Shown here piece after piece: positions 31,154-49,700 of a stretch of 64,000 bases of DNA. The DNA is taken from NCBI GenBank assembly GCA_039679675.1, contig JBDKUN010000059.1:127608-191607 (forward strand), in the 5' to 3' direction. Under the pieces are notes generated by a model. It worked only from the letters and a program-made list of their open reading frames with translations, was not told the origin of the DNA and did not search any database. The translations under genes and the position numbers were made by a program. The stretch comes from Armatimonadota bacterium. Lineage in GTDB: Bacteria; Armatimonadota; UBA5829; DTLH01. The stretch's first letter is position 1, and every line of letters starts with the position of its first letter.

Positions 31154-31894
31154 TTAATCGAACTCTTTCTGCTCCACTCCCGTATTAACAGTGATATCCT
31201 TTGTTTCTGTTGTCGCTGCCAGTTTTCCTTCACTGTTGTATACCTCAGCCTTGCATGGAGTCCAAATCCCGTTTACCTTGATATGGTTGAAGTATAGCGT
31301 CTTCACCTTGAGCGAGTCATCTCCGAACATCCTGTCGCGCCTCAACAATTTATAATCCTTACCGTCAATCCAGATCAATTGATACTTGCTGCTCTTGGCT
31401 GTCTTCAGCTTCAGAACATAAGCAAGTGAACCGTCTTCGTTCTTTTCAGTCCGGACCAGGCTGATATTGTAAATATCCCAGATGACATCAGATACTACGC
31501 CCACATCCAGCGGGCTCATTCGTTTTTCCTGCTCTTTCGATATATCTTCACGTTTTTTGTATCTCATAGACGGGATTCTAATGTGCCGGACATTACCTGC
31601 GGTGATGAATTCAACCTTCATCATACCCAGCACACCGTTTATCTTGAGGCTATCGGGGGCCTTAAACACTACTTTGGCGCTTTTAAACTCATAAAGCTCC
31701 GCGAAGACTTTGCCCATTTTCTGAAGCTCTCGCTGGTTGGAATTGACAACGACCAGATTGCAGCTAAGATCTTTCAGTCCACCTGCAGCCTTATGGACAT
31801 GAGTCTTGAGACTTTCCAGCTCATCTGCTGCGAAAAGCGTGGATGATATTGTTATCAAAGCTATAATTACTGCGAATCCGAATAACTTTTTCAA
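31154..31894 (-). CDS. Secreted LolA-like / outer-membrane lipoprotein-sorting-like protein (hypothetical)
   Basis: Signal peptide MKKLFGFAVIIALITISSTLFAA. The mature part has an alternating beta-strand pattern and is embedded in the LPS cluster. The family is not confidently assigned. Confidence 0.3.
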   Translation of the reverse strand: MKKLFGFAVIIALITISSTLFAADELESLKTHVHKAAGGLKDLSCNLVVVNSNQRELQKMGKVFAELYEFKSAKVVFKAPDSLKINGVLGMMKVEFITAGNVRHIRIPSMRYKKREDISKEQEKRMSPLDVGVVSDVIWDIYNISLVRTEKNEDGSLAYVLKLKTAKSSKYQLIWIDGKDYKLLRRDRMFGDDSLKVKTLYFNHIKVNGIWTPCKAEVYNSEGKLAATTETKDITVNTGVEQKEFD

Positions 31895-32820
31895 CTACTT
31901 GTCTCCATCGATTCCTTGACTGCTTCCGATGCCCGTTTCCATCTGTCGTGGAGCCACAGCCACTGAGACGGGTCTTTTCTGATCTCATCTTCTATTGCCG
32001 TGGTTATTGCCTGCGTCAGCATGTGAATATCTTCTTTTTCATTACCTGTATGAGTTACAGTAATAGGCGGGTATATTCTTGCCCTAAACCGGCCTTCTTC
32101 ATCCCTGCGCGCAAACCCACAGACAACTGGAGCGCCTGTTCTAAGTGCAAATACGGCAGGGCCTGTTGCAGTAGCACAGGGTTTGCCGAAAAAGTCTACA
32201 AATATACCGGTGAACGTGTTCTGGTCCGGCAGTATTCCCAAAACCTCATTTCTCTTAAGCGACCTGACAGCCGGAAGTGCTGAGTTGTCCCTGTCCAGCA
32301 CGTGATATCCGGCTGTCTCACGCATTTTGTTGGCAATGCCGGTCATCGCCGGGTCGTCGCTATTGCGGGCTATCACGTTCACTTTATAGCCGGATAGAAC
32401 CAGTTTTCGGGCAAATATCTCCCAGTTGCCCAGATGAGCCGTTATAAGAATAACGCCATGTCCCTTGGCAAGAGCTTCATCCATATATTCTTTTCCATCA
32501 AGATCAATCCAGGCATCAAGTTCCTCAGGCGGCAGGTGCAGAATATGCAAGAACTCCAGCATGCCTTTTGCAAAGTGCCTGCAGGTGTTTCTGGCAGTTG
32601 CGCGGACCTTCTCACTGCTCCATTCTGGATATGCCGCTGTGAGATTTTTTATAGCTACCCGCCTGTATCTTCGGGACATAAGAAACATAAAGTCTCCAAG
32701 TCTCCTGCCCCACCGGCCTATATTCGATTTGTTCAACCTGCTCGAAAAGCGAAGGAAAACCCATGCAGCTATCCTTCCGCCCAGAAATTCCAGTCTTTTT
32801 CTCAGCTTTCGGCGCGTCAT
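31891..32820 (-). CDS. lpxL: Lipid A biosynthesis late acyltransferase (LpxL/HtrB/MsbB family)
   Basis: Length, the N-terminal basic/TM region and the ITAHLGNWE (H-x4-E-type) acyltransferase motif. Confidence 0.7.
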   Translation of the reverse strand: MTRRKLRKRLEFLGGRIAAWVFLRFSSRLNKSNIGRWGRRLGDFMFLMSRRYRRVAIKNLTAAYPEWSSEKVRATARNTCRHFAKGMLEFLHILHLPPEELDAWIDLDGKEYMDEALAKGHGVILITAHLGNWEIFARKLVLSGYKVNVIARNSDDPAMTGIANKMRETAGYHVLDRDNSALPAVRSLKRNEVLGILPDQNTFTGIFVDFFGKPCATATGPAVFALRTGAPVVCGFARRDEEGRFRARIYPPITVTHTGNEKEDIHMLTQAITTAIEDEIRKDPSQWLWLHDRWKRASEAVKESMETSS

Positions 32821-35210
32821 AAACCAATCACCCTATCCAAAAGCCGATCCATGTTATCTATCATAAGTTCAATGTCCAACACATACATGTTCTCTAGACG
32901 CAGTTTTACGGCATCTTTTGCCGTTGTGACTATAGCTTGTGCACCACTTGACTCAAATGCCCGCTGAACAGCATTCACCCTCTCTTGAGAATACGAACAG
33001 TGGTCTCCAAAGCTTATTCTTTCCTTTATATCCGCGCCGCACTCTCTGAGTAGTATATCGAATGATTCAGGGCTTGCAATGCCGGATACCGCCACTATCG
33101 CCATTCCCTGAAGCCTAGATGTATCAAGTCGCTCGCCCGTTTCACAGTCGATCAAAGCGCTCGGAACTTTACCTGCGGTAAATATTTCCGCATCAGGCGC
33201 ACGATAAGCCAACTCAGCCTTAAGACCGGCTGCGCGGTCGGAATCAACCAGTTCTTTACCAGTGATCATGACCGCGTCGGCTCGTTTAATCCCGCTTACG
33301 GGTTCCCGAAGATCCCCAGCAGGCAATAACATGTTCATTCCATACGGTTTGTCCGCTCGCACAAGTATTATTTCGACATCTCGGTGAAGCTGCCAATACT
33401 GCATTCCGTCATCGAGCACTATCACATCCGGGCTGAACCTTTCCATCAGAATCAGCCCCATTTTGCGCCTGTCTTTTCCGATTGCTACAGGCACTCCGGG
33501 GAGCGCATTAGCAAGAAGCGCCGGTTCATCCCCGCATTCATGTGCATCCAGATACCGTGTAATGCCGTCCGACACTACAGCACCAACCTTACACAGACTT
33601 CCACCATGCCCCCGGCTGAGTATTGCGGGTTTCAGTCCACGGCGCAATAAACCTTCACATATTGACCGTACCGCAGGGGATTTCCCTGTTCCTCCGAACG
33701 TCAGGTTCCCAACGCTCACGACACGGCAGGGGAGTTTATATCGCAGCCTTAGTCCAGTTTTATAGGGCAATAAATACACCCACAGTCCAAGCCCATAGAG
33801 CCAGGAAAAGGGCAAAAGCAGGATACTGGGGGATAGCAAGTGTTCAGATACTCCGCGATCCTTCTGTTCTCTGTTCCCTGCTCCCTGTTTACTCGCCTCT
33901 ACTATCTTCTCCGCATATCTCCTTGACGCGCCCCTGTTTGCATTCATCATCTCAAGAGCATATTTTCGTATATCATCCAGTGCAGGACCGTGTGTTTGCA
34001 GATTTGTTATGTGTTTCGCAAGCTCTTCTTTATCCTTGACTTCAAAACCAACTCCAGCATCCACAGCCTGTCTGACCAGATCGCGCGCTTTAAAAGTGTA
34101 AGGACCGAAAAGGACAGGTTTTCCCTGCGCTATCGGCTGGAGGATATTGTGGCCACCTTTCGGGATCAGGCTTCCCCCGACGAACGCCGCGTAACCAACC
34201 GCATAGACAGTGGCAAGCTCACCGAAGGTATCAAGGATGATAATATCCTCTTTTCCTGATATGTTCTCAGACTGGCTTCTTCTGCCACAGGACAGACCGC
34301 GAGCACTCGCCATTTCGACTATTTCATCGGCGCGTTCTATCTGCCTTGGTGCCAATATCATTCTGAGATCGGGAACAGACTGCCGCGCTAGCTTAAATGC
34401 ATCCAAAACCGGCTCATCTTCGCCTGGATTAATGCTTCCTGCTACAAACACACTCTGGCCTTTTATTAATCCGAAGCGCTTTCTTATTTCATCGATCTCC
34501 GGTTTAGTAAGCGGGTCGGACTCCTGATCAAACTTACAGTTACCGATGACCTCTACACGCTTTTCTGAAGCTCCAAGCCCGATTATCCGCTCGGCATCGG
34601 TATCTGTCTGCATGAGCATCGTCTGAACGTTGGAAAGAGCCCACTTATAGAACGGCTTTATCTTTCTACCATTCTTTACGGTGCGGTCGGAGACAATCCC
34701 ATTTACTATCAGCGTTCGGACACCGATTCTTCTTGCAAATTCGAGGAAATTCGGCCAAATCTCGCTTTCCATGCTTACAAAGACATCAGGATCGACTACA
34801 TCCAGCGACTTTATCACGGAAAATGCAGTATCCAGCGGAAAATATATGATATGATCCGCCTCAGGAAGAGATTTCCGGGCCATTTCCTGGCCTGTAATGG
34901 TCGTGGTGGAAACTATAATTTCCGCATCAGGGCAAATAGCTTTTATCTCGCGGAGTATCGGTGCGCTTGCGACTACTTCGCCGACAGATACAGCTTGAAT
35001 CCAGATACGCGGCCGTGTTTTTGATCTTCTGTGGACACTTTCGGGGAAAATACCCAGCTGCTGCCGCCATGCATTGCGGGATTTCCCTGACCCCAAGACT
35101 CTCCAGATGTAATATACGGCTAGAACCGGACTGAGCAGAAGGAGCAGGAGATTATAAACAATCGGCATCCTGCTTTCCCTTTCCAAACAGTTCCTCAGCG
35201 GCTCTTTCAT
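32817..35210 (-). CDS. waaA-lpxK: Fusion protein: Kdo transferase (WaaA/KdtA, N-terminal about 440 aa) + tetraacyldisaccharide 4'-kinase (LpxK, C-terminal about 350 aa)
   Basis: The N-terminal half has IWIQAVSVGEVVASAPILREI...IIVSTTTITGQEMA and ...GGHNILQPIAQGKPVLFGP (KdtA). The C-terminal half has VVSVGNLTFGGTGKSPAVRSI...ILSRGHGG (LpxK P-loop) and ...FGDHCSYSQERV...IVTTAKDAVKL (LpxK C-terminus). It is one continuous 797-aa ORF. The likely start is the MPIVYNLLL Met near 35168. Confidence 0.8.
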   Translation of the reverse strand: MKEPLRNCLERESRMPIVYNLLLLLLSPVLAVYYIWRVLGSGKSRNAWRQQLGIFPESVHRRSKTRPRIWIQAVSVGEVVASAPILREIKAICPDAEIIVSTTTITGQEMARKSLPEADHIIYFPLDTAFSVIKSLDVVDPDVFVSMESEIWPNFLEFARRIGVRTLIVNGIVSDRTVKNGRKIKPFYKWALSNVQTMLMQTDTDAERIIGLGASEKRVEVIGNCKFDQESDPLTKPEIDEIRKRFGLIKGQSVFVAGSINPGEDEPVLDAFKLARQSVPDLRMILAPRQIERADEIVEMASARGLSCGRRSQSENISGKEDIIILDTFGELATVYAVGYAAFVGGSLIPKGGHNILQPIAQGKPVLFGPYTFKARDLVRQAVDAGVGFEVKDKEELAKHITNLQTHGPALDDIRKYALEMMNANRGASRRYAEKIVEASKQGAGNREQKDRGVSEHLLSPSILLLPFSWLYGLGLWVYLLPYKTGLRLRYKLPCRVVSVGNLTFGGTGKSPAVRSICEGLLRRGLKPAILSRGHGGSLCKVGAVVSDGITRYLDAHECGDEPALLANALPGVPVAIGKDRRKMGLILMERFSPDVIVLDDGMQYWQLHRDVEIILVRADKPYGMNMLLPAGDLREPVSGIKRADAVMITGKELVDSDRAAGLKAELAYRAPDAEIFTAGKVPSALIDCETGERLDTSRLQGMAIVAVSGIASPESFDILLRECGADIKERISFGDHCSYSQERVNAVQRAFESSGAQAIVTTAKDAVKLRLENMYVLDIELMIDNMDRLLDRVIGL

Positions 35211-35847
35211 CCGCCGCGCTTATAGCTTTTCCTATCATTTCAGACCACTTAGTCCGGTCTTCATCCGTCTCACATTTCCCGACATGTATCGGATCACCGA
35301 ATACGATACATGCCTTTGAAAACGGCTTTGGAACCTCGTGTTTATCCCATGAGTTGAACTGCCACACTCGTGAGCAAGCAATACCTACTGGCAAAATGCT
35401 GCAACCTGACCGTTCAGCCATCAGGACTATTCCAGGCTGCACCACCTTTGCCGGACCACGTGGCCCGTCCGGTGTAATAGTTATAATTCCGTCGTCTTTT
35501 ATGCGCTTCACTGATTCGAGCAGCGCTTTTGCGCCGTGTGCACGGCTGGAACCATGGACTATCCTATATCCGCGAGATTGAAGAAGCCTTGACTGCAGCT
35601 CACCGTCTTTTGACACCGAAACAATCGCCCAAAACCCCATATGACGGCAAAAGTATATCGGGAGTATAGTCGTTCCATGCCATGTAGCTATTACGCCACC
35701 ATGTCCTGAACTGCGCATATCTTCAAGCCGGTCTATTCCTACCGGCTTGATTCTCACAGTGCAGGCGATACCGGTGGAAACAAGCCACAAAAGCCGCCAG
35801 ATTATCTCAGTTCTGAGTTTTTTCCAGATGTCCTTCACTGGAAGCAA
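35152..35847 (-). CDS. DUF374 domain protein (lipid A/Kdo-associated lysophospholipid acyltransferase-like)
   Basis: Sits between msbA and waaA, where DUF374 genes typically occur. Contains ATWHGT and ITPDGPRGP motifs. Confidence 0.5.
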   Translation of the reverse strand: MLPVKDIWKKLRTEIIWRLLWLVSTGIACTVRIKPVGIDRLEDMRSSGHGGVIATWHGTTILPIYFCRHMGFWAIVSVSKDGELQSRLLQSRGYRIVHGSSRAHGAKALLESVKRIKDDGIITITPDGPRGPAKVVQPGIVLMAERSGCSILPVGIACSRVWQFNSWDKHEVPKPFSKACIVFGDPIHVGKCETDEDRTKWSEMIGKAISAADERAAEELFGKGKQDADCL

Positions 35848-37576
35848 CTACCTCTTCTTTTTTTAAATCGAACTGTGTGTGATACAACCTAGCAAAAGCG
35901 CCTTCATGCTGCATCAGTTCATCAAAACTTCCCTGCTCGACTATTCTGCCGTCTCCAAGGACGATAATCAGATCAGCCTGCTTTATGGTAGACAACCTGT
36001 GTGCTATTACAAGCGTCGTTCTCCCTACCATGAGCTTATCCAGCGCTTCCTGCACCAGTCGCTCGGAAGTGGCATCGAGAGAACTCGTGGCCTCATCGAG
36101 GATCAATATGCGTGGGTCTTTCAGAATCGCTCTTGCGATGGCAATCCGTTGTCTTTCACCACCCGAAAGCCTTGCGCCCCGTTCGCCGATCACCGTCTTA
36201 TAGCCGTCTTCGAACTGGCTGACAAACATATGAGCATTTGCAGCGCGAGCAGCCTGTTCAACTTCCTCGTCCGTAGCATCCGGCCTTCCGTAAGCGATGT
36301 TGTCCCTTATTGTCCCGCTGAACAGTATCGTTTCTTGCGGAACTATACCTATGTGCTTCCTAAGCGACTCCAAAGTCACACAACGAATATCATGGTCATC
36401 GACCAATACCGCACCGCCTGAAACCTCGTAGAACCTTGGTACTAGATTCGCAACAGTAGACTTTCCGGCGCCGCTCGGCCCTACAACGGCGACCGCTTTG
36501 CCCGGTTCCATCGTGAAAGAAATGTTTTTCAGAACCTGTTCGCCGGTCTGATAAGAGAATGAGACATTTTTGAACGCGACGTGGCCGGTTATTTCGCCAA
36601 GGTCAACAGCATCAGGAGAATCAGCAATGTCCGGTTCTTCATCAAGAACCTCGAAAATGCGATCAATACCGGCCATTGTCTGATGGTATGTAACATTCAA
36701 TCGCCCGATCTTCTTTGCGGAACTGGCGACATAAAACGCTATGCCTCCGAACTCGACTATTGAACCGTATGGAATCTGGTGCGACGTTACCAGATAGCCA
36801 CCGAGCAGCATTATCGCTACTACAACGATTGTGCCAAAGAACTCTGTTATCGGAGTAACTAATGCGCTTCTCCGAGCGCTCTTTAGGGCAGCCTTCAGGC
36901 TGGCCAAGTTCTGCTCAAAAAATCGCTGTATTTCATTTTTCTCCATGCCAAACGATTTGACTACTCTGATCCCAACAATTGTCTCCTCGAGGACAGCAAT
37001 CACATCGGCCAGCTTCAATTGAAGGTTTATCGTCAGTTTCCGCATTTTGCGTGTAATTCTACTGATCAAAACGCCCATACCCGGCACAAAAAGTATAAAT
37101 ATACCTGCCAGGACCCAATTGATCATAAACATCCTGGCAATTCCACCGATAACAGTCAGAGGAGCATTGATGACATCCGTAATAGCACCGGAACCATTTT
37201 GTATGAGGCCTACATCATTGGTCATCCGCGACATCAGGTGCCCAACCTTATTCCGCTCGAAAAAGCTCAAGGTCATTGAATGCAGGTGAGCATATATGCG
37301 GTTTCTGATATCTGTAGCAATACGATTTGTTGCAGATGCAATTAGGTAGGATTGCCCATAATTCGCCACACCCTTCGGCAACTGTACAATGACAAACGCC
37401 AAGGCAATCATTTTGATCATGTTCCAGTTGTCCAGCTTGACTGCATTGAGGAATTTGCCGGCCAGAAACGGCGTCAGTAGATCACCACAAGTAACAACTC
37501 CGCCTAATATTGATCCTAAGATAAACTGCCACTTATACGCTAATATGTATTGGACGAGTTTTTTACGATTATCCAA
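35807..37576 (-). CDS. msbA: Lipid A export ABC transporter, permease/ATPase fusion
   Basis: Six-TM N-terminal half. C-terminal NBD with GPSGAGKST (Walker A), LSGGERQRIAIARAIL (signature) and ILILDEATSSLD (Walker B). Located within the lpx/waa cluster. Confidence 0.8.
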   Translation of the reverse strand: MDNRKKLVQYILAYKWQFILGSILGGVVTCGDLLTPFLAGKFLNAVKLDNWNMIKMIALAFVIVQLPKGVANYGQSYLIASATNRIATDIRNRIYAHLHSMTLSFFERNKVGHLMSRMTNDVGLIQNGSGAITDVINAPLTVIGGIARMFMINWVLAGIFILFVPGMGVLISRITRKMRKLTINLQLKLADVIAVLEETIVGIRVVKSFGMEKNEIQRFFEQNLASLKAALKSARRSALVTPITEFFGTIVVVAIMLLGGYLVTSHQIPYGSIVEFGGIAFYVASSAKKIGRLNVTYHQTMAGIDRIFEVLDEEPDIADSPDAVDLGEITGHVAFKNVSFSYQTGEQVLKNISFTMEPGKAVAVVGPSGAGKSTVANLVPRFYEVSGGAVLVDDHDIRCVTLESLRKHIGIVPQETILFSGTIRDNIAYGRPDATDEEVEQAARAANAHMFVSQFEDGYKTVIGERGARLSGGERQRIAIARAILKDPRILILDEATSSLDATSERLVQEALDKLMVGRTTLVIAHRLSTIKQADLIIVLGDGRIVEQGSFDELMQHEGAFARLYHTQFDLKKEEVVASSEGHLEKTQN

Positions 37577-37735: not shown

Positions 37736-38248
37736 TCAGCTACCAAAACTCTGTAGCACCATTTTTATGGCGAAAGCAATCACTATGACTACTGTTCCCA
37801 TAATCGTTTTGACTTCTTTGTTCAGCTTGGCCTGCTTGAATGAGAACTTGTGGGTATCTGAAGTGATCCTGGCAGATAGACTGGGTATTATTCTCGGCAC
37901 TCTTTTGCAGTACACTTTGAAATCATCCCCAAACTGCTCGATCAGGAACCGTTCTTCCCATATCACAGCTGCGCCATGGAATGCAAAGAAAAGCGGTATC
38001 ACGATAGCCCAGACCAGCCATCCGCCGGTCATTGTAGAGTAGCCGCACGTTATGAAAAAGCTGCCGATGTAAAGCGGATTTCTGACATGGGCGAAAGGGC
38101 CTGAAACCGTCAGCACTTCTGATTTAACAAGATGTCCTGCTGACCATACTCTGATTGCCTCGCCAAATACAACCAAAACAAACCCTGCAAGTAAAGTCGA
38201 AAGCACGGGTTTTCCGAATACGAACATTATTATGGGCGCAACTAACAA
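37736..38248 (-). CDS. Isoprenylcysteine carboxyl methyltransferase (ICMT)/phospholipid methyltransferase-family membrane protein
   Basis: The SGPFAHVRNPLYIGSFF motif (ICMT/PEMT family) plus multiple TM helices. The ORF-track N-terminal about 80 aa overlap lpxB in another frame and are discarded. The likely start is TTG near 38248 or ATG 38227, just after the lpxB stop. Confidence 0.5.
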   Translation of the reverse strand: MLVAPIIMFVFGKPVLSTLLAGFVLVVFGEAIRVWSAGHLVKSEVLTVSGPFAHVRNPLYIGSFFITCGYSTMTGGWLVWAIVIPLFFAFHGAAVIWEERFLIEQFGDDFKVYCKRVPRIIPSLSARITSDTHKFSFKQAKLNKEVKTIMGTVVIVIAFAIKMVLQSFGS

Positions 38249-38280
38249 GAAGAAAGTCCTGCGTCTGAAAAGAAAGAAGC

Positions 38281-39504
38281 TCAGGCTCTTGGCTGCAGGC
38301 CCGCCGCCGCCAATACCACTTTCGCGGCTCTGCCTGTCCCTCCAGGTGCGCCAAGTACCTCCCGCGCGGACTGGAGTGCCACCCTCATTCTCTGAAGCTC
38401 CACCGGTTCCTTCAGATACTTTACAGCAAGCTCCGCTATCTTCTCGGGTGACGCCTGGTCCCCTAGTAATTCCGGACATATTTCCCTCCCAGCAACAATG
38501 TTGGGCATCCCAATAAATTGCTCAAGTATACTTTTTCGAAAAAGATATTCCAATTTCATAAGTGAGGAACCACGGTAAACGATGATCATCGGGGTTGTCA
38601 GTATCATCGCCTCAAGAGTCGCGGTCCCCGAACAACTGATTAAAAGGTCTGAATTGGCCATCACATCGTATGTTCGGCCTCGTGAAACATAAATATTCTC
38701 TGTAATTAAATCTGCACCGGCTTCGAAATCATTCAGTATCTGATTTATCTTTCGAGTGGCTTTATCGGACCCGGCAGCGATTATAAAGCAGCACTTGTAA
38801 GGAACTTCATCTTCAATAATCGACGCGGCTTCCAGCATTGCGGGCAGTATGTTGTCGATTTCATGCGTTCTACTCCCAGGCAATATCCCAACTATCCGCG
38901 CACCTTTGGGTATCTCATATTTTGGATCAAGAACATCGATCAACTGATCTACATCCATCGAAGGCACTACCTGGTCCAAAAGTGGATGTCCTAAAAAAAG
39001 AGCATCCGCACCCACTTTGGTCAGTATTTCAGCAGACCACGGGAACGGTGTAATAATCCTGTCCGATGCTGCCAGAAGACTGGAATTTTTACCGGGCCGT
39101 TTTCGCCATGAACCGGGCGGAAAATAGTAAACTGTAGGAATCCCCTGTTCTCTTACGAACCTGCCGAGTTTTACGTTAAAAGCGCCGAAATCTATCGGCA
39201 CGAATACATCAGGTTGCCGTTTGCAGAACTCTTTCTTTAGTCTTGCCAGTTCGCATAGGAGCCTTGGGACCATTTTCAGCGATTCTACTATCCCTATTGC
39301 GCCAACACTCGAAAAGTCCGAGACTAGTTCGACACCAGCGGCACGCATCTTTGGTCCGCCTGCTCCCCAGATAGTAATATCCGGGCAAAGCTTCCGAAGT
39401 TCAACGGCTAAAGCACTGCCGCTCGCATCTCCGGAGGCTTCACCGGCTACTATTGCTATCGATGGTGTAGTGACCTTAGCCACGGTGCTCTGTTTGCCTG
39501 CCAT
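38281..39504 (-). CDS. lpxB: Lipid-A-disaccharide synthase
   Basis: IAIVAGEASGDASGSALAVELRK (N-terminal GT19 motif) and overall length. Confidence 0.85.
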   Translation of the reverse strand: MAGKQSTVAKVTTPSIAIVAGEASGDASGSALAVELRKLCPDITIWGAGGPKMRAAGVELVSDFSSVGAIGIVESLKMVPRLLCELARLKKEFCKRQPDVFVPIDFGAFNVKLGRFVREQGIPTVYYFPPGSWRKRPGKNSSLLAASDRIITPFPWSAEILTKVGADALFLGHPLLDQVVPSMDVDQLIDVLDPKYEIPKGARIVGILPGSRTHEIDNILPAMLEAASIIEDEVPYKCCFIIAAGSDKATRKINQILNDFEAGADLITENIYVSRGRTYDVMANSDLLISCSGTATLEAMILTTPMIIVYRGSSLMKLEYLFRKSILEQFIGMPNIVAGREICPELLGDQASPEKIAELAVKYLKEPVELQRMRVALQSAREVLGAPGGTGRAAKVVLAAAGLQPRA

Positions 39505-40300
39505 TATGGCCGCACTTTATTTGCTTGACGAAGTTAAGGAGATACTGCAACTCTTCGCAGGGCTCCACTTCGGCCTCAATCCTCTCCACCGCTTGGGTTA
39601 TATTGAGCGATGATCTGTAAAGCAGCTTGTAGCTCTGCCTTAACGACGCACGCGATCTTGGTGCTACGCCGTTCCTACGCAGTCCGATCACATTGAGATC
39701 GTAGACTTTGATAGGCCTTCCATCCGCCAGCATAAACGGCGGAACATCCTGCACTACTTTTGACATTCCACCGACCATGGCAAGTTTCCCTATGCGCACA
39801 TTCTGATGTACGCCAGCCATACCGCTCAAGATCACCTTATCTTCGACCTGGACATGACCGCTGATTCCTGCCATATTCGCCATTGTGATGTTGTTGGCAA
39901 GTTTGCAGTTATGAGCAACATGACAGTATGCCATCAGCATATTGTTGTTACCTATAATCGTGCTGGTTCCTTCTCCGCTTGCGCGGTGGATCGTGCAGAA
40001 TTCCCTTATGATATTTTCATCGCCGATTGTTAGAAAACTTTTTTCTCCGTGGAACTTATAGTCCTGAGGTGCGCCACCAAGCACTGCACTTACACCGATA
40101 TGGCAATTTCGGCCAATCGTCGTATTGCACTCTATCACGGCATGGTGCTCAATCCTGGTCCCATCGCCTATTTTCACGTCAGGACCGATGACGCAGTATG
40201 ATCCAATTACGACACCCTCACCGATCTCCGCTGATGGATCGATTATCGCTGTTGGATGTATCCCGGTCGCAACTTCCGGATTCATCATTCCATTCCTCAC
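39476..40300 (-). CDS. lpxA: Acyl-ACP--UDP-N-acetylglucosamine O-acyltransferase
   Basis: IHPTAIIDPSAEIGEGVVIGSYCVIG hexapeptide repeats and the LpxA C-terminal helical domain. Confidence 0.85.
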   Translation of the reverse strand: MRNGMMNPEVATGIHPTAIIDPSAEIGEGVVIGSYCVIGPDVKIGDGTRIEHHAVIECNTTIGRNCHIGVSAVLGGAPQDYKFHGEKSFLTIGDENIIREFCTIHRASGEGTSTIIGNNNMLMAYCHVAHNCKLANNITMANMAGISGHVQVEDKVILSGMAGVHQNVRIGKLAMVGGMSKVVQDVPPFMLADGRPIKVYDLNVIGLRRNGVAPRSRASLRQSYKLLYRSSLNITQAVERIEAEVEPCEELQYLLNFVKQIKCGHNGRQTEHRG

Positions 40301-40830
40301 TCATGCACACTGCCGACTGCATTGTCGACCTGTTGTTTATTCTTTTTTCTTTCAACAAGAGCGAAGATAAACTCACCTTCAGCTACGACTTCATTGTCGA
40401 CGCTGGAAACTGCTTTAACTCTTCCGATGGTTCCACGAGTCTTGAGTAGTTCTACTTCGGTGATAAGAGTATCTCCAGGCAAAACCGGCTTTCGGAACCG
40501 CATATTATCCACACCACCAAGGTATGCGAGCTTGCCGACATTTCCGGTAAGTGATAAAAGGAGGACTCCCCCAACCTGTGCCATAGCCTCTATTACCAGT
40601 ACACCAGGCATAACAGCATGTCCTGGAAAATGTCCCTGGAAGAACTCCTCGTTAATAGTTACATTTTTTAATCCGACAATCTTCTTGGTGCCTTCGACTT
40701 TCAAAATCTTGTCAACTAAAAGAAACGGATATCTGTGTGGCAGAATACCTCTGATTTCCTCGATCTCGATCAACGCTCTCGCCCCCTGTTTACTATCTTT
40801 ACGCCGCTTGTTTGCTCTCTCCACCGGCAA
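40297..40830 (-). CDS. fabZ: 3-hydroxyacyl-ACP dehydratase
   Basis: ILPHRYPFLLVDKI...GHFPGHAVMPGVLVIEAMAQ motif. Confidence 0.85.
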   Translation of the reverse strand: MPVERANKRRKDSKQGARALIEIEEIRGILPHRYPFLLVDKILKVEGTKKIVGLKNVTINEEFFQGHFPGHAVMPGVLVIEAMAQVGGVLLLSLTGNVGKLAYLGGVDNMRFRKPVLPGDTLITEVELLKTRGTIGRVKAVSSVDNEVVAEGEFIFALVERKKNKQQVDNAVGSVHE

Positions 40831-41653: not shown

Positions 41654-42702
41654 ATATCTTCACCGCCCAACTGAGCTAACCGTCGAGTCAACTGCTCGAC
41701 TTCTTTCTTCAGCATTTCAACAGTCTTTTGTAATTCCGGCAGCCTTAACTGCGCTGCCTGCGCCCTTAATGCATCTTTATGGGGCCTGGCCGGATATCCC
41801 GAATACATACCACCCGGCTGCAGATCACCGAAAACACCGGCTTGACCAGCAACTGCAGCACCATCGCCTATCTTAACGTGGTTCTTTACTCCAGCTTGCC
41901 CAGCAAGCGTTGCTCCGTTTCCTATCTCAACGCTACCTGCTATTCCGACCTGCGCAACAATAACGGAGGACTTACCGATCTTTACGTTATGCGCGATCTG
42001 CACAAGGTTGTCGATCTTGGTTCCCCGTCCGATTCTTGTCGATCCTGTTTTTGCGCGGTCTATGGTAGTGCATGAGCCTATTTCTACGTCATCTTCGATA
42101 ACGACGTTACCGATCTGCGGGACCTTGCTCAATCCACCGTCTACGGGAATATAACCGAACCCGTCACTACCTATCACAGTACCTGCATGCACGATAACAT
42201 TCGACCCCAGCACACAGCCAGGGTATATCGTAACATTCGGGTGTATTATGCAGCCGGCTCCGATACTAACACCATCTCCCAGGAATACAAGCGGCTGGAT
42301 GACCGTACCATCGCCTATAGATACATCATCACCGATGAAAGACCCGTACCCGACAGATACGCCTTCGCCTACAGTGGCCCGATCCCCTACCCTGCAGCTT
42401 GGATCAATCCCGGCTTTTGGTGCAGTGCTGACCGGTTCGAATGCTTTGAGAATCTCGACAAAAGCTTTTCGAGGATTATTTACATGGATAACAGATTTCC
42501 CCTCACAGGTCCCGCTTTCAGCCAGAATAGCCGAAGCGCTGCACCTGATCGCAGAATCAAAGTATCTTCCGTTCTCCGCGAGAACGATATCACCCTGTAC
42601 CGCATCTGTTATACTCGCAGCACCTGTAATCGGTATATCATCCGGTCCTTCGACCGATCCGCCGACTATCTCTGCAAGCTCATGAACTCTAATGCCTGTC
42701 AT
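41650..42702 (-). CDS. lpxD: UDP-3-O-acylglucosamine N-acyltransferase
   Basis: N-terminal domain plus a long run of left-handed beta-helix hexapeptide repeats. Located directly upstream of lpxC/fabZ/lpxA. Confidence 0.85.
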
Positions 42703-43819
42703 CCTTTTTCACCCGGCTCGGAAGATACGGGAGTCTCTCCCGAAACCAGTCGGTCCTATCCTCTACCTCTCCAGTATTTTTGAACACCACATTCATGCCG
42801 TTCTGCCGTGCAATTCTCCGCACAACGGTTTCAAGCTCAGAATGGATTCTACAGCGAAGCGATTTCTCCAGAGCGCTCGCTTCATCACCGCCCTTAATAG
42901 CGGAATATTTCAATACAAGCTCCGCCGGAGCACAGCTCACTACTGCATTTTCTCTGCCATATTCAGTAGAGCACGAACCAATCAACTGCATTCTAGCATC
43001 GTTGAAGTTGTTTTTCACCAACTCATATCTGAACCGTTCGCGCTTTTTCCTAATTAAATCGTTTATCCTCCGCGTTTCGTCATCGCGGATAGATTCCAGT
43101 TCATTTTCAGCTGATTTCCGGCGTTCTTCTCCTACTTTTAATGACTTCGCAGCCATCCTAGAAACAAGATCATTCTCATTCTGAGTCAGCTTTGCCTTTA
43201 TACTGTCAAACTCACTCTCTCTTGAAGCAATAGACTGTTTTACTGCATCAGAAGAAAGGCCCTCTACTGAAAGCTGCGCTTTCAATGCGTACAACTTTAT
43301 TGCTGTATCTACACGCTCATATTGCTGTTCTTCATTCAGGGCGCGCAGGTCAACCGCAAGCTTCTGCTCGGATTTTCGTCTTTCTTCAGCCTCGGCGGCA
43401 CTTGCCTGAGCTTCAAGATCCTGCCGCCGCTCGTTCAGCCTCTTTTCAAGAGCATTTTCTAGCTGTAAACGTATTAACTGCATCTCCTGCTGAGACCTTT
43501 TTTCAAGCCTCGACTGCAGAGATGCCCTCGACTCCGATAACACAGCCGGTTCCCGGAACTCGAAATCCATGCCGCGAGATAGAGATGCGTTGCCGTTTTT
43601 GAACCGGACACTCCGCTCATTACGCAACATCATCTCTCGGACCAGAACTAACTGTTTCCACGCAGGATGGCTTGATACTAACTCATCCAGGTTGCAATAA
43701 ACCTGTTTTTTTGCGACTTCAGGCGCTCTCTGACTTTCAATATACCAGCCGAAGCCAGCAATAGTCAGAGCGATTATGCAAACAACACCCAGTGATCCAT
43801 ACAGAACTCGTAGATTCAC
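42689..43819 (-). CDS. Hypothetical membrane-anchored coiled-coil protein (possible second OmpH/Skp-like periplasmic protein)
   Basis: N-terminal TM ([16 protein letters not shown]), then about 250 aa of strongly heptad-like charged sequence, then a small C-terminal globular region. It occupies the slot between skp and lpxD where OmpH-family genes occur. Confidence 0.35.
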
Positions 43820-43835: not shown

Positions 43836-44477
43836 CTAGTTCTTTTTGCCGTTTAGCTTGTCAATCACCGGCTGTGTCAGATCGACACCACCATAGTAAA
43901 CAGCTACTTTATCTATGACAACGTCTATTTTCTTCTGCTTCGCGACTTCCTCAATGACTTTCATAATATCGTTGCGGAGATCAGTGAACACGCTGTCTCT
44001 CTTTGCTGTGAAATCTGTTTCTGCCGACTGGCTCATTTTTTTGCAATTATCTTCAGATTTGGACGCCATATCCATCAGTTCCTTCTGCCGGGCTTTTTCC
44101 TGGTCAGTAGGTTCTGTTTTAGCCTGGAGAGATTTAAGTTCGGCATCAAGGGTCTTCTCTTTATCCTGAAGTTCCTTTATCCGTGCTTTTTCGCTCTCAG
44201 TCGGGTTTTGCTTGATGACGAGCGCTAAAAGCTCCTTTGAATCGTTATCATCCAGCATCTTGTTCGCATCAAGGGTCTTCAACTGCAGATCAAGCTGCTT
44301 GGCAAATGCTTCGAGATCTGCTTTTGCCTTTTCAGTCTTCGTATACTTCTCGAAAACCGTTGCAGCATCCACATATCCCAGGGATGCAGAAGTATCTGCT
44401 GCCTTTGCAGGCGTAAAAGACAACGCTACCATTGCTAATACAGCGGCGATTACCAGTTCGAATGATCGTTTTACCAT
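43836..44477 (-). CDS. skp: OmpH/Skp-family periplasmic chaperone
   Basis: Signal peptide, a coiled-coil-rich Lys/Glu body, and a C-terminal ...IDVVIDKVAVYYGGVDLTQPVIDKLN typical of Skp. Located immediately downstream of bamA. Confidence 0.6.
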   Translation of the reverse strand: MVKRSFELVIAAVLAMVALSFTPAKAADTSASLGYVDAATVFEKYTKTEKAKADLEAFAKQLDLQLKTLDANKMLDDNDSKELLALVIKQNPTESEKARIKELQDKEKTLDAELKSLQAKTEPTDQEKARQKELMDMASKSEDNCKKMSQSAETDFTAKRDSVFTDLRNDIMKVIEEVAKQKKIDVVIDKVAVYYGGVDLTQPVIDKLNGKKN

Positions 44478-44758: not shown

Positions 44759-46645
44759 TTAGAACGCCTGGCCTATACTGAAATGGGTCCTGGCTCCGTC
44801 GCTTCCTATTCCGTAATCGAAACGAAGGTTTCCTATAGGTGTATTTACTCGAAGACCTATGCCTGTTCCGATACTCGGGCTGAACCCTGAGTGCTGGTCA
44901 AGATCATCGGATATACTGTATGTTCTTGGAGCACCCCAGGCATCCCCATAATCCAAGAACAAAACGCCGGTCAACCCCTGGGATACCGGATGGCGGTATT
45001 CAATGCTCAAAACAGCCATCTTATCACCCCAGAATCTGTCTTCCCTGTAACCCCTAAGGCTTTCAGCACCTCCGACAAAGAATTGCTCGAAGAACGGAAG
45101 GTCTCCGTTCGATACGCCGGCAAGCAGCCTCGCTGCGAGGGTAACTCGTTTGTCAGTCGGGGCTTCTTTACGGCCGCCCTTGCTCCAGTAATGTCTGATA
45201 TCGATCTGCAGTTTCTGGAACGGCCCTTTGATATTCGCTTCATTTACAACCAAGCCGTTTTCGTTTGCAGGCGGAACATTCAGATCCTTCGCAGTATACT
45301 GCTCAACCACATCCGCATTACCGGCTTCAAACGACACGGACCTATACCAACCTACTGCCGGGTCACTATCAAAATCCCTTGTATTATTAACAATTCTGCT
45401 CGTTGCACTGTGCACGGGGCCACTCTGTGCGACAAACCTGTTCACATCACTCGGCTGCAAACTGCTTATATTAAGGGTTGTAGTGTCTACAGTTTCCGTC
45501 CTTAGTGTAATATAACCTCTTGTATAATCACTGATAGGCCTGCTCAAACCAAGGGTGCCACCCTTACGCCGTTCATCATATGTCTGGCCGTCTACATCGC
45601 CGTCATTTCCGAAAAGCGCGGATGAAAACCTGTAAAGCAGCTTGTCGAACACGTTCACTGAAAGCGAAGTATGATATTTGTCGATCCACGGTTCGTGGAA
45701 CCCGACCTCGTAACTGTTCGAGCCGCCAATCCCGTCACTTGTGCCGGTCTCCCACAGAAGTGTCAGGCCCTGTCCAAGCCCACGGAAGTTGGTTTCCGTC
45801 ATTTCAGCCCGTCCTACTAACCTGCTTCGTGAGTTGTAACCTACACCAACCGATACATTTCCGGTCTTCTTTTCAGTCACCGGTATCGCAACACCGATTT
45901 TGCCTATTGAAGAACCTGGTTCTATCTTTGGGGCCTGCACATCCTCTAAAATGTCCAGATTCCAGATTCGAGCGATGTCGTCTCGAAGAGTCTTCATATT
46001 AAAGTAATCACCCGGCTTCTCTTTCATTTCGCGGGTGAACACTTCTATCCTGGTTTTCTTGTTTCCGACTATATCTATCTTCTCGACCGTGCTCACAAGT
46101 ATTGCGATTGTCAATGTCCCGGTCTTCGGATCTATACCACTATCTTCCGTAACGTGCGCAACATATCCCAGGTCGCGATAGTAGTCCTGAATAGCTGATA
46201 TATCTATATCGACAGTGTTTGTGTTCAACACCTGGTTCGGCTTCGTCCTCATGATGTTGAGGATTGTATCTTTCCCAACCGGTTCCGAACCGACTATGTT
46301 TATCTCTTTGACCAATGGGTTTTCCACAACATCAAAGATCACCCTTACTCCCTCAGGAGTGTCCTCTGTCCGTACAGGGACCGCGCTGAAGTAACCAAGC
46401 GCGCTTATAGCCTCACGATCCTTCTCTACAGCCTCCTTTGTGTATGTCGCGCCCGGAGCCAGTTTGATAACGTTTTCAACCGTTTCCTTGTTGATATTCC
46501 GGTTACCTGTGATGACTATCTGAGTCACCTTAGCCCCTTCCTGCGCAAAGGCGGAAAGGCTCAGAGAGAAGATCAGTGCCGTGGTCACTGCCAGAACCAG
46601 TACCAGGGCCGATTTCCGTCCGATTTGAGATTTACTGCATAACAT
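44759..46645 (-). CDS. bamA: Outer membrane protein assembly factor BamA (Omp85 family), short form with about 3 POTRA domains
   Basis: Signal peptide, then POTRA repeats (ITGNRNINKETVENVIKLAPGATYTKEAVEKDREAISALGYF...), then a C-terminal beta-barrel ending in ...IGQAF (terminal aromatic). Only 628 aa. Confidence 0.8.
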   Translation of the reverse strand: MLCSKSQIGRKSALVLVLAVTTALIFSLSLSAFAQEGAKVTQIVITGNRNINKETVENVIKLAPGATYTKEAVEKDREAISALGYFSAVPVRTEDTPEGVRVIFDVVENPLVKEINIVGSEPVGKDTILNIMRTKPNQVLNTNTVDIDISAIQDYYRDLGYVAHVTEDSGIDPKTGTLTIAILVSTVEKIDIVGNKKTRIEVFTREMKEKPGDYFNMKTLRDDIARIWNLDILEDVQAPKIEPGSSIGKIGVAIPVTEKKTGNVSVGVGYNSRSRLVGRAEMTETNFRGLGQGLTLLWETGTSDGIGGSNSYEVGFHEPWIDKYHTSLSVNVFDKLLYRFSSALFGNDGDVDGQTYDERRKGGTLGLSRPISDYTRGYITLRTETVDTTTLNISSLQPSDVNRFVAQSGPVHSATSRIVNNTRDFDSDPAVGWYRSVSFEAGNADVVEQYTAKDLNVPPANENGLVVNEANIKGPFQKLQIDIRHYWSKGGRKEAPTDKRVTLAARLLAGVSNGDLPFFEQFFVGGAESLRGYREDRFWGDKMAVLSIEYRHPVSQGLTGVLFLDYGDAWGAPRTYSISDDLDQHSGFSPSIGTGIGLRVNTPIGNLRFDYGIGSDGARTHFSIGQAF

Positions 46646-46764: not shown

Positions 46765-49700
46765 TCAGAATCTCCGGTTGTACGACATTTCCAGCACACC
46801 CAGGCGGCGGGAGTCAGTTACGTATGAAAATTCCAGCCAGTCACGAATCCTGTAACTCAGAGTCAACGAATACGTCGCTCCGGTTATCGTCTGAGCGCCG
46901 GTCACAATCCTCCAGTATGAAAGATAGAAATTATCGAACAATTCCCTCGATAAAAATACGGCAAGTGGCTGCTCAAAACCGTATTCAATAGAAAAATCTT
47001 CAAGACCAAGAGCTTCTATGAACGTTGTTTCCAACGGGTCGAACAGGCGGGGAGATACCGCCACGCTGAACAACTCTCTAAGCTGGTCTCTTAACTCGGT
47101 CTCTCCCGTTCCGAAAATGTCTTCAAAGTGGCCCAGCGCTGCCAATATCTGCGTTCTGGTCAATCCTGCCGGATCACTCTTGAGTGAGATATTTTCAGGC
47201 TCAAGCTTGTCCAGTGGGCCTGAAACATCAAGGGTAATCTTATATCGCTGCTGTGTTCCCAGCCCTGAGGTCGCTGTAATGGTTGTCTGAGCATGCAGAT
47301 CAACAGTCACGCCTGCTGTCTGTCTGCCAGGAGTCCAATTGACATTGATATTTCCGCGTGTAATCCTCATTCTCGTTGTCGGGAATCGCAGAGTCCCGCT
47401 ATCAATACGTATTCCTGCTGTTATGAGCGGCTTCTCCAAAGAACCCGCGACCTGCCCGCTTCCGCGTAAAAGCGCGATAATACTTGGGTTTCTGAACCAG
47501 ACATTATCTCCTATGTTAAACCCGATATTAAACTTCGGATTTATAACATACCTGGCAATCCCTGTTGGGCTGACTGCTGGAACGCGGGATAGGATAACCG
47601 ATGCATCGCTTAATGCAACCTGTCCTGAAATCAGAGGCTCCGTAACGGATCCTGAAACAGCAAGCCCGTTTACCGTTGAGAATGTGCTTGTCACGCGCTC
47701 CTGATAACCCAGCAGGTTCTGCTCAACAAGTTTCAGATTGTTGAGGTTCAGAACCAGGTTTATAGCTCCTCGCTGACTGCCGGAAGCGGGCTTGAATAAA
47801 TTATGCAGCGATATTGTACCGCCTGGAACCGCATCGAATGTCCCGCCGCCGCTCGATCCGCCAGACAGTGTCTCCACTCGGACCAAATCCTGATCGAATA
47901 CAAGATTTGCCTGTATATTTGTAAACTCCGTCTGAAAATTCCTGACGTTGATGTTGCCGTCCTTAATAACCATCTGCCCGCCAAGATTTGGATTACTTAT
48001 TGAACCAGTGAGGTCCAGCGTCGCAGAAATAAGCCCAGGGTTCTTTGTGTCAGCAGTGACAGCATCCGATAACAGGGTAAGCACTTCTAGCGTCTGCTCT
48101 TCCAGTGCCGCGTGGAACGCAATCGGCTGGTCTGTAGGTATGGTGAATGTCTGCCAGTTCCAGGGAAGTGTTCCGAAGAATGCCGCGGATTGCGAGTCCC
48201 TCGTCACAAGTGCCCGGCTGATTTCAATAGTATTGCGCCCGATAGTTATCTGGCTGGCACGAAGCCTGTCAAATGAAATACCGGAGATTACCGGGTTTAC
48301 GACTTCAGCTGATGCCGTAACGAGCGGTGCATCAATAGGCCCTTTCACTGTTGCACGGACAGTAGCTGTGCCGCTGATGTGCGTCGGCCCGGCAGCGGGA
48401 GTAAGTGCATCCAAGTCCACGTTGTAAGCATCTATTTCAAGATCAGTCTGTCCGTTGGCGATCAAAGTACCTTGTGCTGATACGCTCAGAGCCTCAGCTG
48501 TAGCTTCGAACGACTCCAGTATGAGCTCGCCCCGGCGCGAAACCGCAGAAAGATCGATTCGAGCGTTTTTAATCTCCGAAATGTCAACATCCTGAGCTGT
48601 AAGGCTGAACTTGGCTTCCGGCTCATCTATCGGCCCTGATGCGGAAAATGATGCTGAAAGAATTCCTGTATCTGGACGCCTTAACTTCGCGAGAAGCGAT
48701 CTCAATCCCTCGCCTCCGGGCTGACCGATATATGGACTCTCCGACACAGCCGTGTAGATAACGGGATATGAGAAGTTTTTCAATACGCCGCCATCTATCT
48801 GCACTGTTCTTTTTTCAGTATCCAATGACGCGCGCTCTACAGAAAGGACACCGCTCGCCGACTGAAGGTTAACATCCGCGATAACAAGTGATTTTCCACT
48901 CCATTTGACCTCAGATGCGAACCTGTCGAATTTCACTGTGTTGATTACAGGATTATTTGAGACAACAGTTGCCTCCACCCTTGGATTACCTACCGTACCG
49001 GCTATACGGCCTTTTGCGTCCACTGTCCCAGAGAGAAGCGCATACGGTTTTGTGTACTGGCTCAATTGAACAAGGGCGATGTTGTTTGCAATAAAGTTGA
49101 AGGAGATATTGCCTTTAGCGTCTATCACTCCATCAGCGCTGAATACCGCGTTATCGCTTTGAGCCAGAAGACCGGTTAACCGAAGCTGCTTGTCGGAATA
49201 AGAAAATCCTGCGCGAGCCTGTGTGACCGGATACCCGGCGAATGAACCATCCGACAGTCTCAATGTCCCCGCTGCTGTTATGTTCGGAGCAGTGCCTCGT
49301 ATTACTACGCTCCCTGTAACACTGCCGGTAATATCTGCTTTAACCTGCAGTAGTGAGAGTATTCGCTCAGCCGGAGCTTCTGAGACATCGATATTGAAAT
49401 TAATGGTCGGTGAGGGTGTGCCTATTCCGCCTATTTTACCGTGGAGCGCTACTTCAGCAGGTAAAACACGGATAACCGCATCTTCCAGGGTAATACCGGA
49501 CGATGTTGCTACGAGTCGGCCTCTTGCATAATCAAACGCAAAACGCTGGAAGCGGCCGTTGAACACTTCCGCTCTTCCCGTTACTACCGGATTACTGAAA
49601 GGCCCTTTAACACTGCCGTTAAAATCAACTATTCCTTTATAACCCGTCAGACCGAAAGGTTTCTGCAAGATACTCAGGTCTACTCCCACGGCAGACACGC

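Follow-up and report, generated by a model that had tools for sequence, protein, structure and literature searches.

The gene described here is a single uninterrupted reading frame on the minus strand of a 64-kb stretch of DNA from an uncultured Armatimonadota bacterium (contig JBDKUN010000059.1, positions 127,608 to 191,607; the whole of this stretch is called the window in the following), and it is predicted to encode first a full-length WaaA, the transferase for 3-deoxy-D-manno-octulosonate (Kdo), and then a full-length LpxK, which is the lipid A pathway's 4'-kinase. The interpretation to which we assign a probability of roughly 0.8 is that this is a genuine bifunctional gene, which arose in place from translationally coupled waaA and lpxK genes in one Armatimonadota-like lineage. 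Judged by its sequence, the protein is a new, independently arisen member of an architecture that is abundant in databases and undescribed in print, and beyond that it is an unremarkable Rosetta-stone fusion between neighbours in an operon.

The longest open reading frame (ORF) extends over 32817..35210, begins with the ATG at 35210 and comprises 797 amino acids (aa) with no internal stop in the ORF listing. The real start of the gene is probably M15, the ATG at 35168, as M15 aligns with the start of nearly all homologues, among them a 783-aa protein of 100% identity (P0001), is preceded by a purine-rich, Shine-Dalgarno-like stretch and overlaps the stop codon of the upstream DUF374 gene by 17 nucleotides (nt). 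Read from M15, the fused waaA-lpxK coding sequence occupies 32817..35168 (783 aa and stop); all features described below lie on the minus strand, and residues are numbered in the 797-aa frame unless M15 numbering is indicated. A 746-aa call for one homologue (P0002), considered as an N-terminal disruption, was only a matter of start-codon choice.

The WaaA module (glycosyltransferase family GT30, GT-B fold; aa 15-440, 33891..35168) starts with a hydrophobic membrane anchor (aa 17-39, 35094..35162), recognized by Kyte-Doolittle hydropathy and as a helix in an AlphaFold2 (AF2) model. It matches Pfam Glycos_transf_N (PF04413) over aa 47-229 with an E value of 6e-54 (182.7 bits, cutoff 23.9; 178 of the 179 profile positions), is covered over aa 17-440 by NCBIfam WaaA models (PRK05749 sub-models, E 4e-99) and aligns over aa 65-405 with the Aquifex aeolicus structure 2XCI (E 8e-38). 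The LpxK module (tetraacyldisaccharide-1-phosphate 4'-kinase; aa 462-797, 32820..33827) matches Pfam LpxK (PF02606) over aa 462-793 with an E value of 3e-82 (276.8 bits, cutoff 27; 324 of 328 profile positions), scores 221.8 bits with the equivalog model TIGR00682 (cutoff 91.95) and aligns over aa 457-791 with 4EHW/4EHX, also from Aquifex aeolicus (E 1e-40). Its P-loop or Walker A motif GNLTFGGTGKSP (aa 501-512, 33675..33710) and its C-terminal motif VTTAKDAVKL (aa 761-770, 32901..32930), which holds the equivalent of Aquifex K280, can be read directly from the translation. Moreover, Foldseek comparisons with the AF2 model gave template modelling (TM) scores of 0.88 to 4EHY for the LpxK half and of 0.79 to 2XCI and 0.87 to 4BFC (C-terminal domain) for the WaaA half; none of the solved chains among the PDB fold and sequence matches spans both halves. 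The two modules are joined by a linker, KQGAGNREQKDRGVSEHLLSP (aa 441-461, 33828..33890), which is free of stops in this frame and lies at the former junction of waaA stop and lpxK start. An earlier note on this DNA had proposed that a single 797-aa frame unites these two enzymes of consecutive Raetz-pathway steps, had quoted both motifs and had named the vicinity of 33875 as the place where a break could separate two genes. All of this was borne out: profile searches, Aquifex alignments and folds agree, each half matches its family far beyond chance, and the linker falls where the note had expected the junction; the strand, on which it was silent, is minus.

How did the two genes become one? 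The genomic context of waaA and lpxK was surveyed in one genome per GTDB species, and the best 80 of at least 600 pattern matches were each tested for a shared stop-free frame. A true single ORF was found at 15 of these loci, and separate adjacent genes in the order waaA→lpxK at 44 of the 59 two-gene loci among the matches listed, numbers that do not amount to an estimate of prevalence. The fused loci carry the labels Selenomonas, Selenomonadaceae, Mitsuokella, Phascolarctobacterium (three), Acidaminococcaceae, Bryobacterales, Terriglobia, Binatia, Nevskia and CSSED10-310, and three further ones come from metagenome-assembled genomes (MAGs) with doubtful labels. In most of the separate pairs the two genes are read in different frames and share from a few to a few dozen bases. 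At four separate loci waaA and lpxK share a frame and have only a stop codon between them (L008, L009, L014 and L064, belonging to a Nitrospira MAG, two 'delta proteobacterium' MAGs and the complete genome of Sporomusa rhizae), and readthrough or a single substitution would yield a fused protein there.

The species of the window itself is not among the GTDB matches listed, of which the best has 61% identity. The closest relatives among them are unfused, namely L002 (61%), in which the final waaA codons and the lpxK ATG overlap, and L006 (52%), an Armatimonadota MAG. Neighbour-joining trees of the WaaA halves and of the LpxK halves are congruent and follow taxonomy, the window grouping with L002 and then with L006, and in both trees the fused forms are spread over six or more unrelated clades (Selenomonadaceae, Acidaminococcaceae, Acidobacteriota, a Nitrospira-like MAG, a Binatia-labelled MAG and CSSED10-310), each with unfused sisters. 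Since the nearest relatives are unfused and the trees of the two halves congruent, the fusion probably formed in place and recently in the lineage of the window, and repeatedly elsewhere. Common descent with the other fused proteins is not supported, as both halves group with L002 and L006 and not with the fusions of Negativicutes or Acidobacteriota, and the WaaA-LpxK architecture is convergent. The stop/start overlap between the two genes would have been lost by a small frame-changing mutation, and such a fusion forms easily because waaA and lpxK abut. For five loci the taxonomic label and the position in the trees disagree: L007 (Acidimicrobiia) falls beside Nitrospira, L016 (Segatella copri) beside Phascolarctobacterium, L056 (Enterobacteriaceae) beside a 'delta proteobacterium' MAG, L058 (Saccharimonadales) beside Acidobacteriota and L076 (Patescibacteria) beside Sporomusa, which suggests mis-binned contigs.

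The architecture is by no means rare or unseen in the public databases. In a word-indexed search most of the 120 best matches carried PF04413 together with PF02606 in proteins of 783-842 aa, and 91 of the 131 homologues collected have at least 700 aa and both motifs. Similarly, an exhaustive search of 1.84 billion representatives clustered at 50% identity, of which the best 150 were inspected, gave about 65 proteins of 720-870 aa in which a single match extends over both halves and about 20 more that are probably fused (four Pfam-confirmed). In every WaaA-LpxK fusion seen WaaA comes before LpxK, which is also the order of the genes. In the openly accessible full-text literature no description of a fused WaaA-LpxK protein was found. 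Opiyo et al. (2010; PMC3087551) report waaA-lpxK as a frequent gene cluster, reading the adjacency as functional association, and describe a fusion of lpxC and fabZ, and neither the Halothermothrix genome paper nor Antunes (2016) goes beyond adjacency of the genes to a fused protein. The database entries do not reveal the architecture by name either: the 841-aa protein of Selenomonas artemidis (WP_026761640.1), identical on at least 24 contigs, is called only 'tetraacyldisaccharide 4'-kinase' in RefSeq and UniRef. Its gene is the only waaA or lpxK within a 14.5-kb stretch of lipopolysaccharide (LPS) cluster, the order of which is LpxC-FabZ-LpxA-LpxI-LpxB-MsbA-WaaA·LpxK-KdsB-KdsA-KdsD-KdsC-LpxL-LptC-LptA-LptB.

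Is a membrane-bound transferase followed by an LpxK compatible with the topology that both enzymes need? The fused protein has two hydrophobic segments only. The first, aa 14-41, is the WaaA anchor, with a Kyte-Doolittle peak of 1.5-2.1 and an AF2 helix at residues 2-27 (M15 numbering). The second, aa 458-481, is part of the former N-terminal amphipathic or hydrophobic helix of LpxK, now internal (aa 458-484, 33759..33839), which is supported by hydropathy, by alignment with residues 2-30 of Aquifex LpxK and by an AF2 helix with a predicted local distance difference test (pLDDT) score of 79-88. The leading helix of LpxK is described in a review as amphipathic, interfacial and required for activity, and the lipid site is placed on that same face (PMC6286764). 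If it spanned the membrane, the ATP-dependent kinase would come to lie in the periplasm; since it is interfacial, the fusion is topologically acceptable, and it would be tolerated because the helix lies on the membrane surface and not across it. The AF2 model, computed from the naturally paired alignment of 82 fused proteins, has a mean pLDDT of 86 and a predicted TM score (pTM) of 0.55, and residues 431-445 (M15 numbering) have a pLDDT below 50. The linker varies in length and sequence among fusions, its length differing by more than 20 residues between clades. The model speaks for two complete enzymes at the membrane interface, connected by a flexible tether, rather than for a fixed substrate channel.

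The product of about 88 kDa would start with the membrane anchor and the GT-B Kdo transferase; about 20 flexible linker residues would lead on to the interfacial amphipathic helix and the P-loop 4'-kinase, and both catalytic domains would lie at the inner membrane, on its cytoplasmic side. There the LpxK module would use ATP to convert tetraacyldisaccharide-1-phosphate to lipid IVA, and the tethered WaaA would add Kdo from cytidine monophosphate (CMP)-Kdo to the same lipid, which would stay in the inner leaflet throughout. The benefit of such an arrangement would be a fixed 1:1 stoichiometry and two-dimensional proximity, not a sealed channel, and the fusion may also be nearly neutral.

Several points weigh against a genuine bifunctional gene with this mode of action. 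1) The NCBIfam WaaA equivalog models all score under their strict cutoffs (best 331.9 bits, cutoff 438), and therefore membership in the WaaA family is supported whereas the precise equivalog assignment is not; 2) a ligand of the CMP ribose in WaaA, E276 in Aquifex, is replaced by Q358 (within GGHNILQP); 3) an in-frame TTG (L458), situated 11 nt past a GGAG, could in principle start a separate LpxK; 4) a standalone waaA or lpxK could be encoded elsewhere in the genome, as the view comprises 64 kb; 5) a kinetic gain from the fusion is purely hypothetical.

The substrate channelling that the earlier note had read from the fusion is less favoured by the evidence than tethering and co-localization of the two enzymes at the membrane surface. 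True channelling, in which a fixed domain interface hands lipid IVA from the active site of the kinase to that of the Kdo transferase, would be in keeping with the enzymes catalysing consecutive steps, with the recurrence of the fusion in at least six clades and with the notion that both lipid-binding faces point to the membrane. We nevertheless regard it as unlikely, since the linker is short, variable and predicted to be disordered, and the AF2 model offers no confident inter-domain geometry at its pTM of 0.55. Furthermore, linkers that differ by more than 20 residues between clades and genes that are separate at three quarters of the two-gene loci listed (44/59) argue against channelling, and the fusions of WaaA with other neighbours suggest that adjacent genes are joined opportunistically. 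A related and rather doubtful proposal is that the recurrent and stably kept fusions report a physical WaaA-LpxK 'metabolon' on the membrane surface, which would be present also in bacteria with separate genes. In that case the kinase would as a rule hand lipid IVA to the Kdo transferase before it mixes with the rest of the membrane, and the natural fusions would supply paired sequences in which the interface could be sought, as well as a ready construct for tests of channelling in lipid A assembly.

It would likewise be improbable that the ORF is fused and two proteins are made all the same, be it by internal initiation near the linker or by cleavage within it. The TTG codon 458 downstream of GGAG and the predicted disorder of the linker would permit this. 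However, neither the GGAG-TTG arrangement nor the linker sequence is kept in the fused relatives of 72% identity; the former is found only in the window and a close relative, and a conserved internal LpxK start was rejected on these grounds. In addition, the fused frame is retained across families, for example in Selenomonadaceae and Acidaminococcaceae, and a need for two products should have brought a stop codon back.

Are both halves still enzymes? Residue equivalents were mapped by alignment with the Aquifex sequences, with roles taken from PMC6286764, and their conservation was assessed across the 82 fused proteins. The LpxK half retains K51/T52 as K510/S511, R72 as R533, D99/E100 as D561/E562, R119 as R581, D138/D139 as D600/D601, H261 as H737 and K280 as K765. 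K510, D561/E562, D600/D601, H737 and K765 are invariant, S511 is S or T, and further invariant positions are G501, N502, T504, G506, G507, T508, G509 and P512 of the P-loop and T763 and D766 of the VTTAKDAVKL motif. The WaaA half retains S28/G30/E31 as S75/G77/E78, E98/E100/W102 as E148/E150/W152, K162 as K226, R212 as R289 and N273 as N355. G77/E78, E148, K226, R289 and N355 are invariant or nearly so, the exceptions being D in place of E148 in P0005 and P0008 and S in place of N355 in P0005, P0008 and P0009. Of the ligands of the lipid 1-phosphate in LpxK, R533 and R581 (R72 and R119 in Aquifex) are kept and H143 is replaced by Y605; the mutation H143A is reported to raise the KM only 7-fold (PMC6286764). 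Both modules are complete and keep their catalytic residues, and both activities are predicted.

According to a further alternative, one of the halves would have degenerated into a non-catalytic scaffold or regulator, with the gene of the real enzyme elsewhere in the genome. The replacements of E276 by Q and of H143 by Y relative to the Aquifex residues would fit this, as would the limited view of 64 kb of the genome. On the other hand, Q occupies the position of Aquifex E276 in 32 of 32 standalone WaaA relatives carrying the motif, and the equivalent of Y605 is also Y in the standalone LpxKs of Armatimonadota; as both replacements occur in standalone relatives, they are lineage traits and not decay caused by the fusion. 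Q358 can still hydrogen-bond and is no argument against membership in the WaaA family. Given that the remaining catalytic residues are all conserved, that the ratio of nonsynonymous to synonymous substitution rates (dN/dS) is low in both halves and that no second waaA or lpxK lies within the window, degeneration of one half is very improbable.

Evidence for the bifunctional gene as a real and maintained entity comes from other assemblies. The same fused frame and gene order were found in four separate metagenome samples, at 100% identity in Logan SRR15035648, 88% in Logan SRR15035646 and 72% each in JGI 3300021045 and Logan SRR27370452, with no frameshift at the junction: a single stop-free ORF with WaaA first is present at the loci L001, L082, L083 and L084 as in the window. 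The order common to the samples is LpxA-LpxB-PEMT-like-MsbA-DUF374-WaaA·LpxK-LpxL-LolA-like-GT9-GT4-GT9. Between the metagenome copies dN/dS, calculated by the method of Nei and Gojobori, amounts to 0.06-0.19 in WaaA, to 0.09-0.15 in LpxK and to 0.28-0.39 in the 21-residue linker, where differences are restricted to substitutions and in-frame indels. The low dN/dS of both halves and the exclusively in-frame changes of the linker indicate that the halves have been maintained as coding sequence while joined. That a sequencing or assembly error of 1-2 nt merged two genes at an overlapping stop/start junction is hardly credible: in the nearest GTDB relatives the separate genes do have about 20 nt in common, read in different frames, and one indel would suffice to merge them, but the open frame recurs in four samples and assemblers, dozens of other lineages have the same architecture, and the agreement of the four samples together with the pattern of linker changes effectively refutes such an artefact.

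The fused gene is embedded in a contiguous supercluster for outer-membrane and LPS biogenesis (27917-51327), which resembles the single-locus outer-membrane clusters of diderm Firmicutes (PMC5007114). In its first part TamB (46765-51327), BamA (44759-46645), Skp/OmpH (43836-44477), an unannotated 376-aa ORF, LpxD, LpxC, FabZ (40297-40830), LpxA and LpxB follow each other, and in its second part a PEMT-like protein, MsbA, DUF374, WaaA·LpxK, LpxL, a LolA-like protein and the glycosyltransferases GT9, GT4 and GT9. Directly downstream of the fused gene lies that of an LpxL-type late acyltransferase, the next step in the pathway (31891..32820), the ATG of which overlaps the fused stop by 4 nt (32817-32820). 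It is followed by a LolA-like or TP_0789-like protein of 246 aa (31154-31894) between LpxL and the first heptosyltransferase, a position kept in all fused relatives. Upstream in the same operon are the DUF374 gene (35152..35847) and an MsbA-like lipid A flippase (35807..37576; TIGR02203, E 2e-155).

In related Armatimonadota-type lineages WaaA carries DUF374 at its N-terminus, within single proteins of about 650-720 aa (P0006, P0024, P0051, P0194, P0216), and DUF374 is therefore probably another protein of the lipid A/Kdo pathway. Two other homologues are a tandem WaaA-WaaA (P0181, 866 aa) and a fusion of WaaA with a GT9 heptosyltransferase (P0201, 863 aa), in which the heptosyltransferase would act one step after Kdo addition. 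Between LpxB and MsbA a small PEMT-family membrane methyltransferase is encoded (37736-38479), again in a position kept in fused relatives (L083, L084). Its best NCBIfam match, to the lipid A 1-phosphate O-methyltransferase LmtA of Leptospira, is weak (E 1e-12, 48 bits, cutoff 325); the PEMT-like protein may be a lipid A-modifying enzyme. The 376-aa ORF between Skp and LpxD (42689-43819) has no Pfam or NCBIfam match and no significant PDB match (best E 0.034). No homologue of LpxH, LpxI or LpxG is visible in the cluster, and the 376-aa ORF is a candidate for the missing hydrolysis of uridine diphosphate (UDP)-2,3-diacylglucosamine or for another envelope function. The GC skew is negative over almost the whole window, consistent with its mostly minus-strand genes, and an Rfam scan of the 64 kb at gathering thresholds detected no RNA family, at the waaA-lpxK junction or anywhere else.

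In Gram-negative bacteria WaaA and LpxK are both essential, and both are antibiotic targets. A natural fusion of the two would be an independent, genetic argument for placing their action on one face of the inner membrane, the cytoplasmic one, and would show that the leading hydrophobic helix of LpxK cannot span the membrane, in agreement with the crystallographic view. It would also provide a single-polypeptide reagent for structural and kinetic study of two consecutive interfacial enzymes. Moreover, since fusions of about 800 aa are labelled only 'tetraacyldisaccharide 4'-kinase', WaaA can be wrongly recorded as absent when pathways are reconstructed, which would concern Selenomonadaceae, Acidaminococcaceae, some Acidobacteriota and the Armatimonadota lineage of the window.

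How does the fused protein compare with known systems? A precedent in gene organization is the waaA-lpxK cluster of Opiyo et al. (2010; PMC3087551), which contains the same genes in the same order, as adjacent genes only, whereas in the window they form a single polypeptide. The fusions of WaaA with DUF374, with a second WaaA or with GT9 (P0006, P0024, P0194, P0216, P0181, P0201) are likewise fusions of neighbours in operon order and differ in the partner, DUF374 in the window being a separate gene that overlaps the start of the fused one. With the standalone WaaA (KdtA) of Aquifex aeolicus (2XCI/2XCU) the window protein has in common the GT-B fold (TM 0.79), the N-terminal membrane anchor and the SxGE, ExExWP, GNxKF, PR and GGHN motifs; in contrast to it, the C-terminus runs on into LpxK, and the ribose-binding E276 is Q, lineage-wide. 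Similarly, the standalone LpxK of Aquifex aeolicus (4EHW/4EHX/4EHY/4LKV) shares the two-domain, Rossmann-like fold (TM 0.88), the leading amphipathic helix, the P-loop of the pattern GxxGxGK[ST], the catalytic base pair in GDEP, the Walker B DD and the catalytic histidine of the DH motif, the differences being that in the window protein the helix is internal instead of N-terminal and that the 1-phosphate ligand H143 is Y. The fusions of Negativicutes (Selenomonas artemidis WP_026761640.1, Phascolarctobacterium, Mitsuokella) have, like the window protein, WaaA at the N-terminus and LpxK at the C-terminus with invariant catalytic motifs, and their gene lies in an LPS operon as well, in their case directly after msbA. 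Yet they are only 34-36% identical to the window protein, their linker is about 20-30 residues longer, and they carry E at the position of Aquifex E276 in WaaA and H at position 143 in LpxK, where the window protein has Q and Y, respectively. As each half of the window protein groups with unfused Armatimonadota-type genes and not with these proteins, the fusions in Negativicutes and in the lineage of the window are of independent origin.

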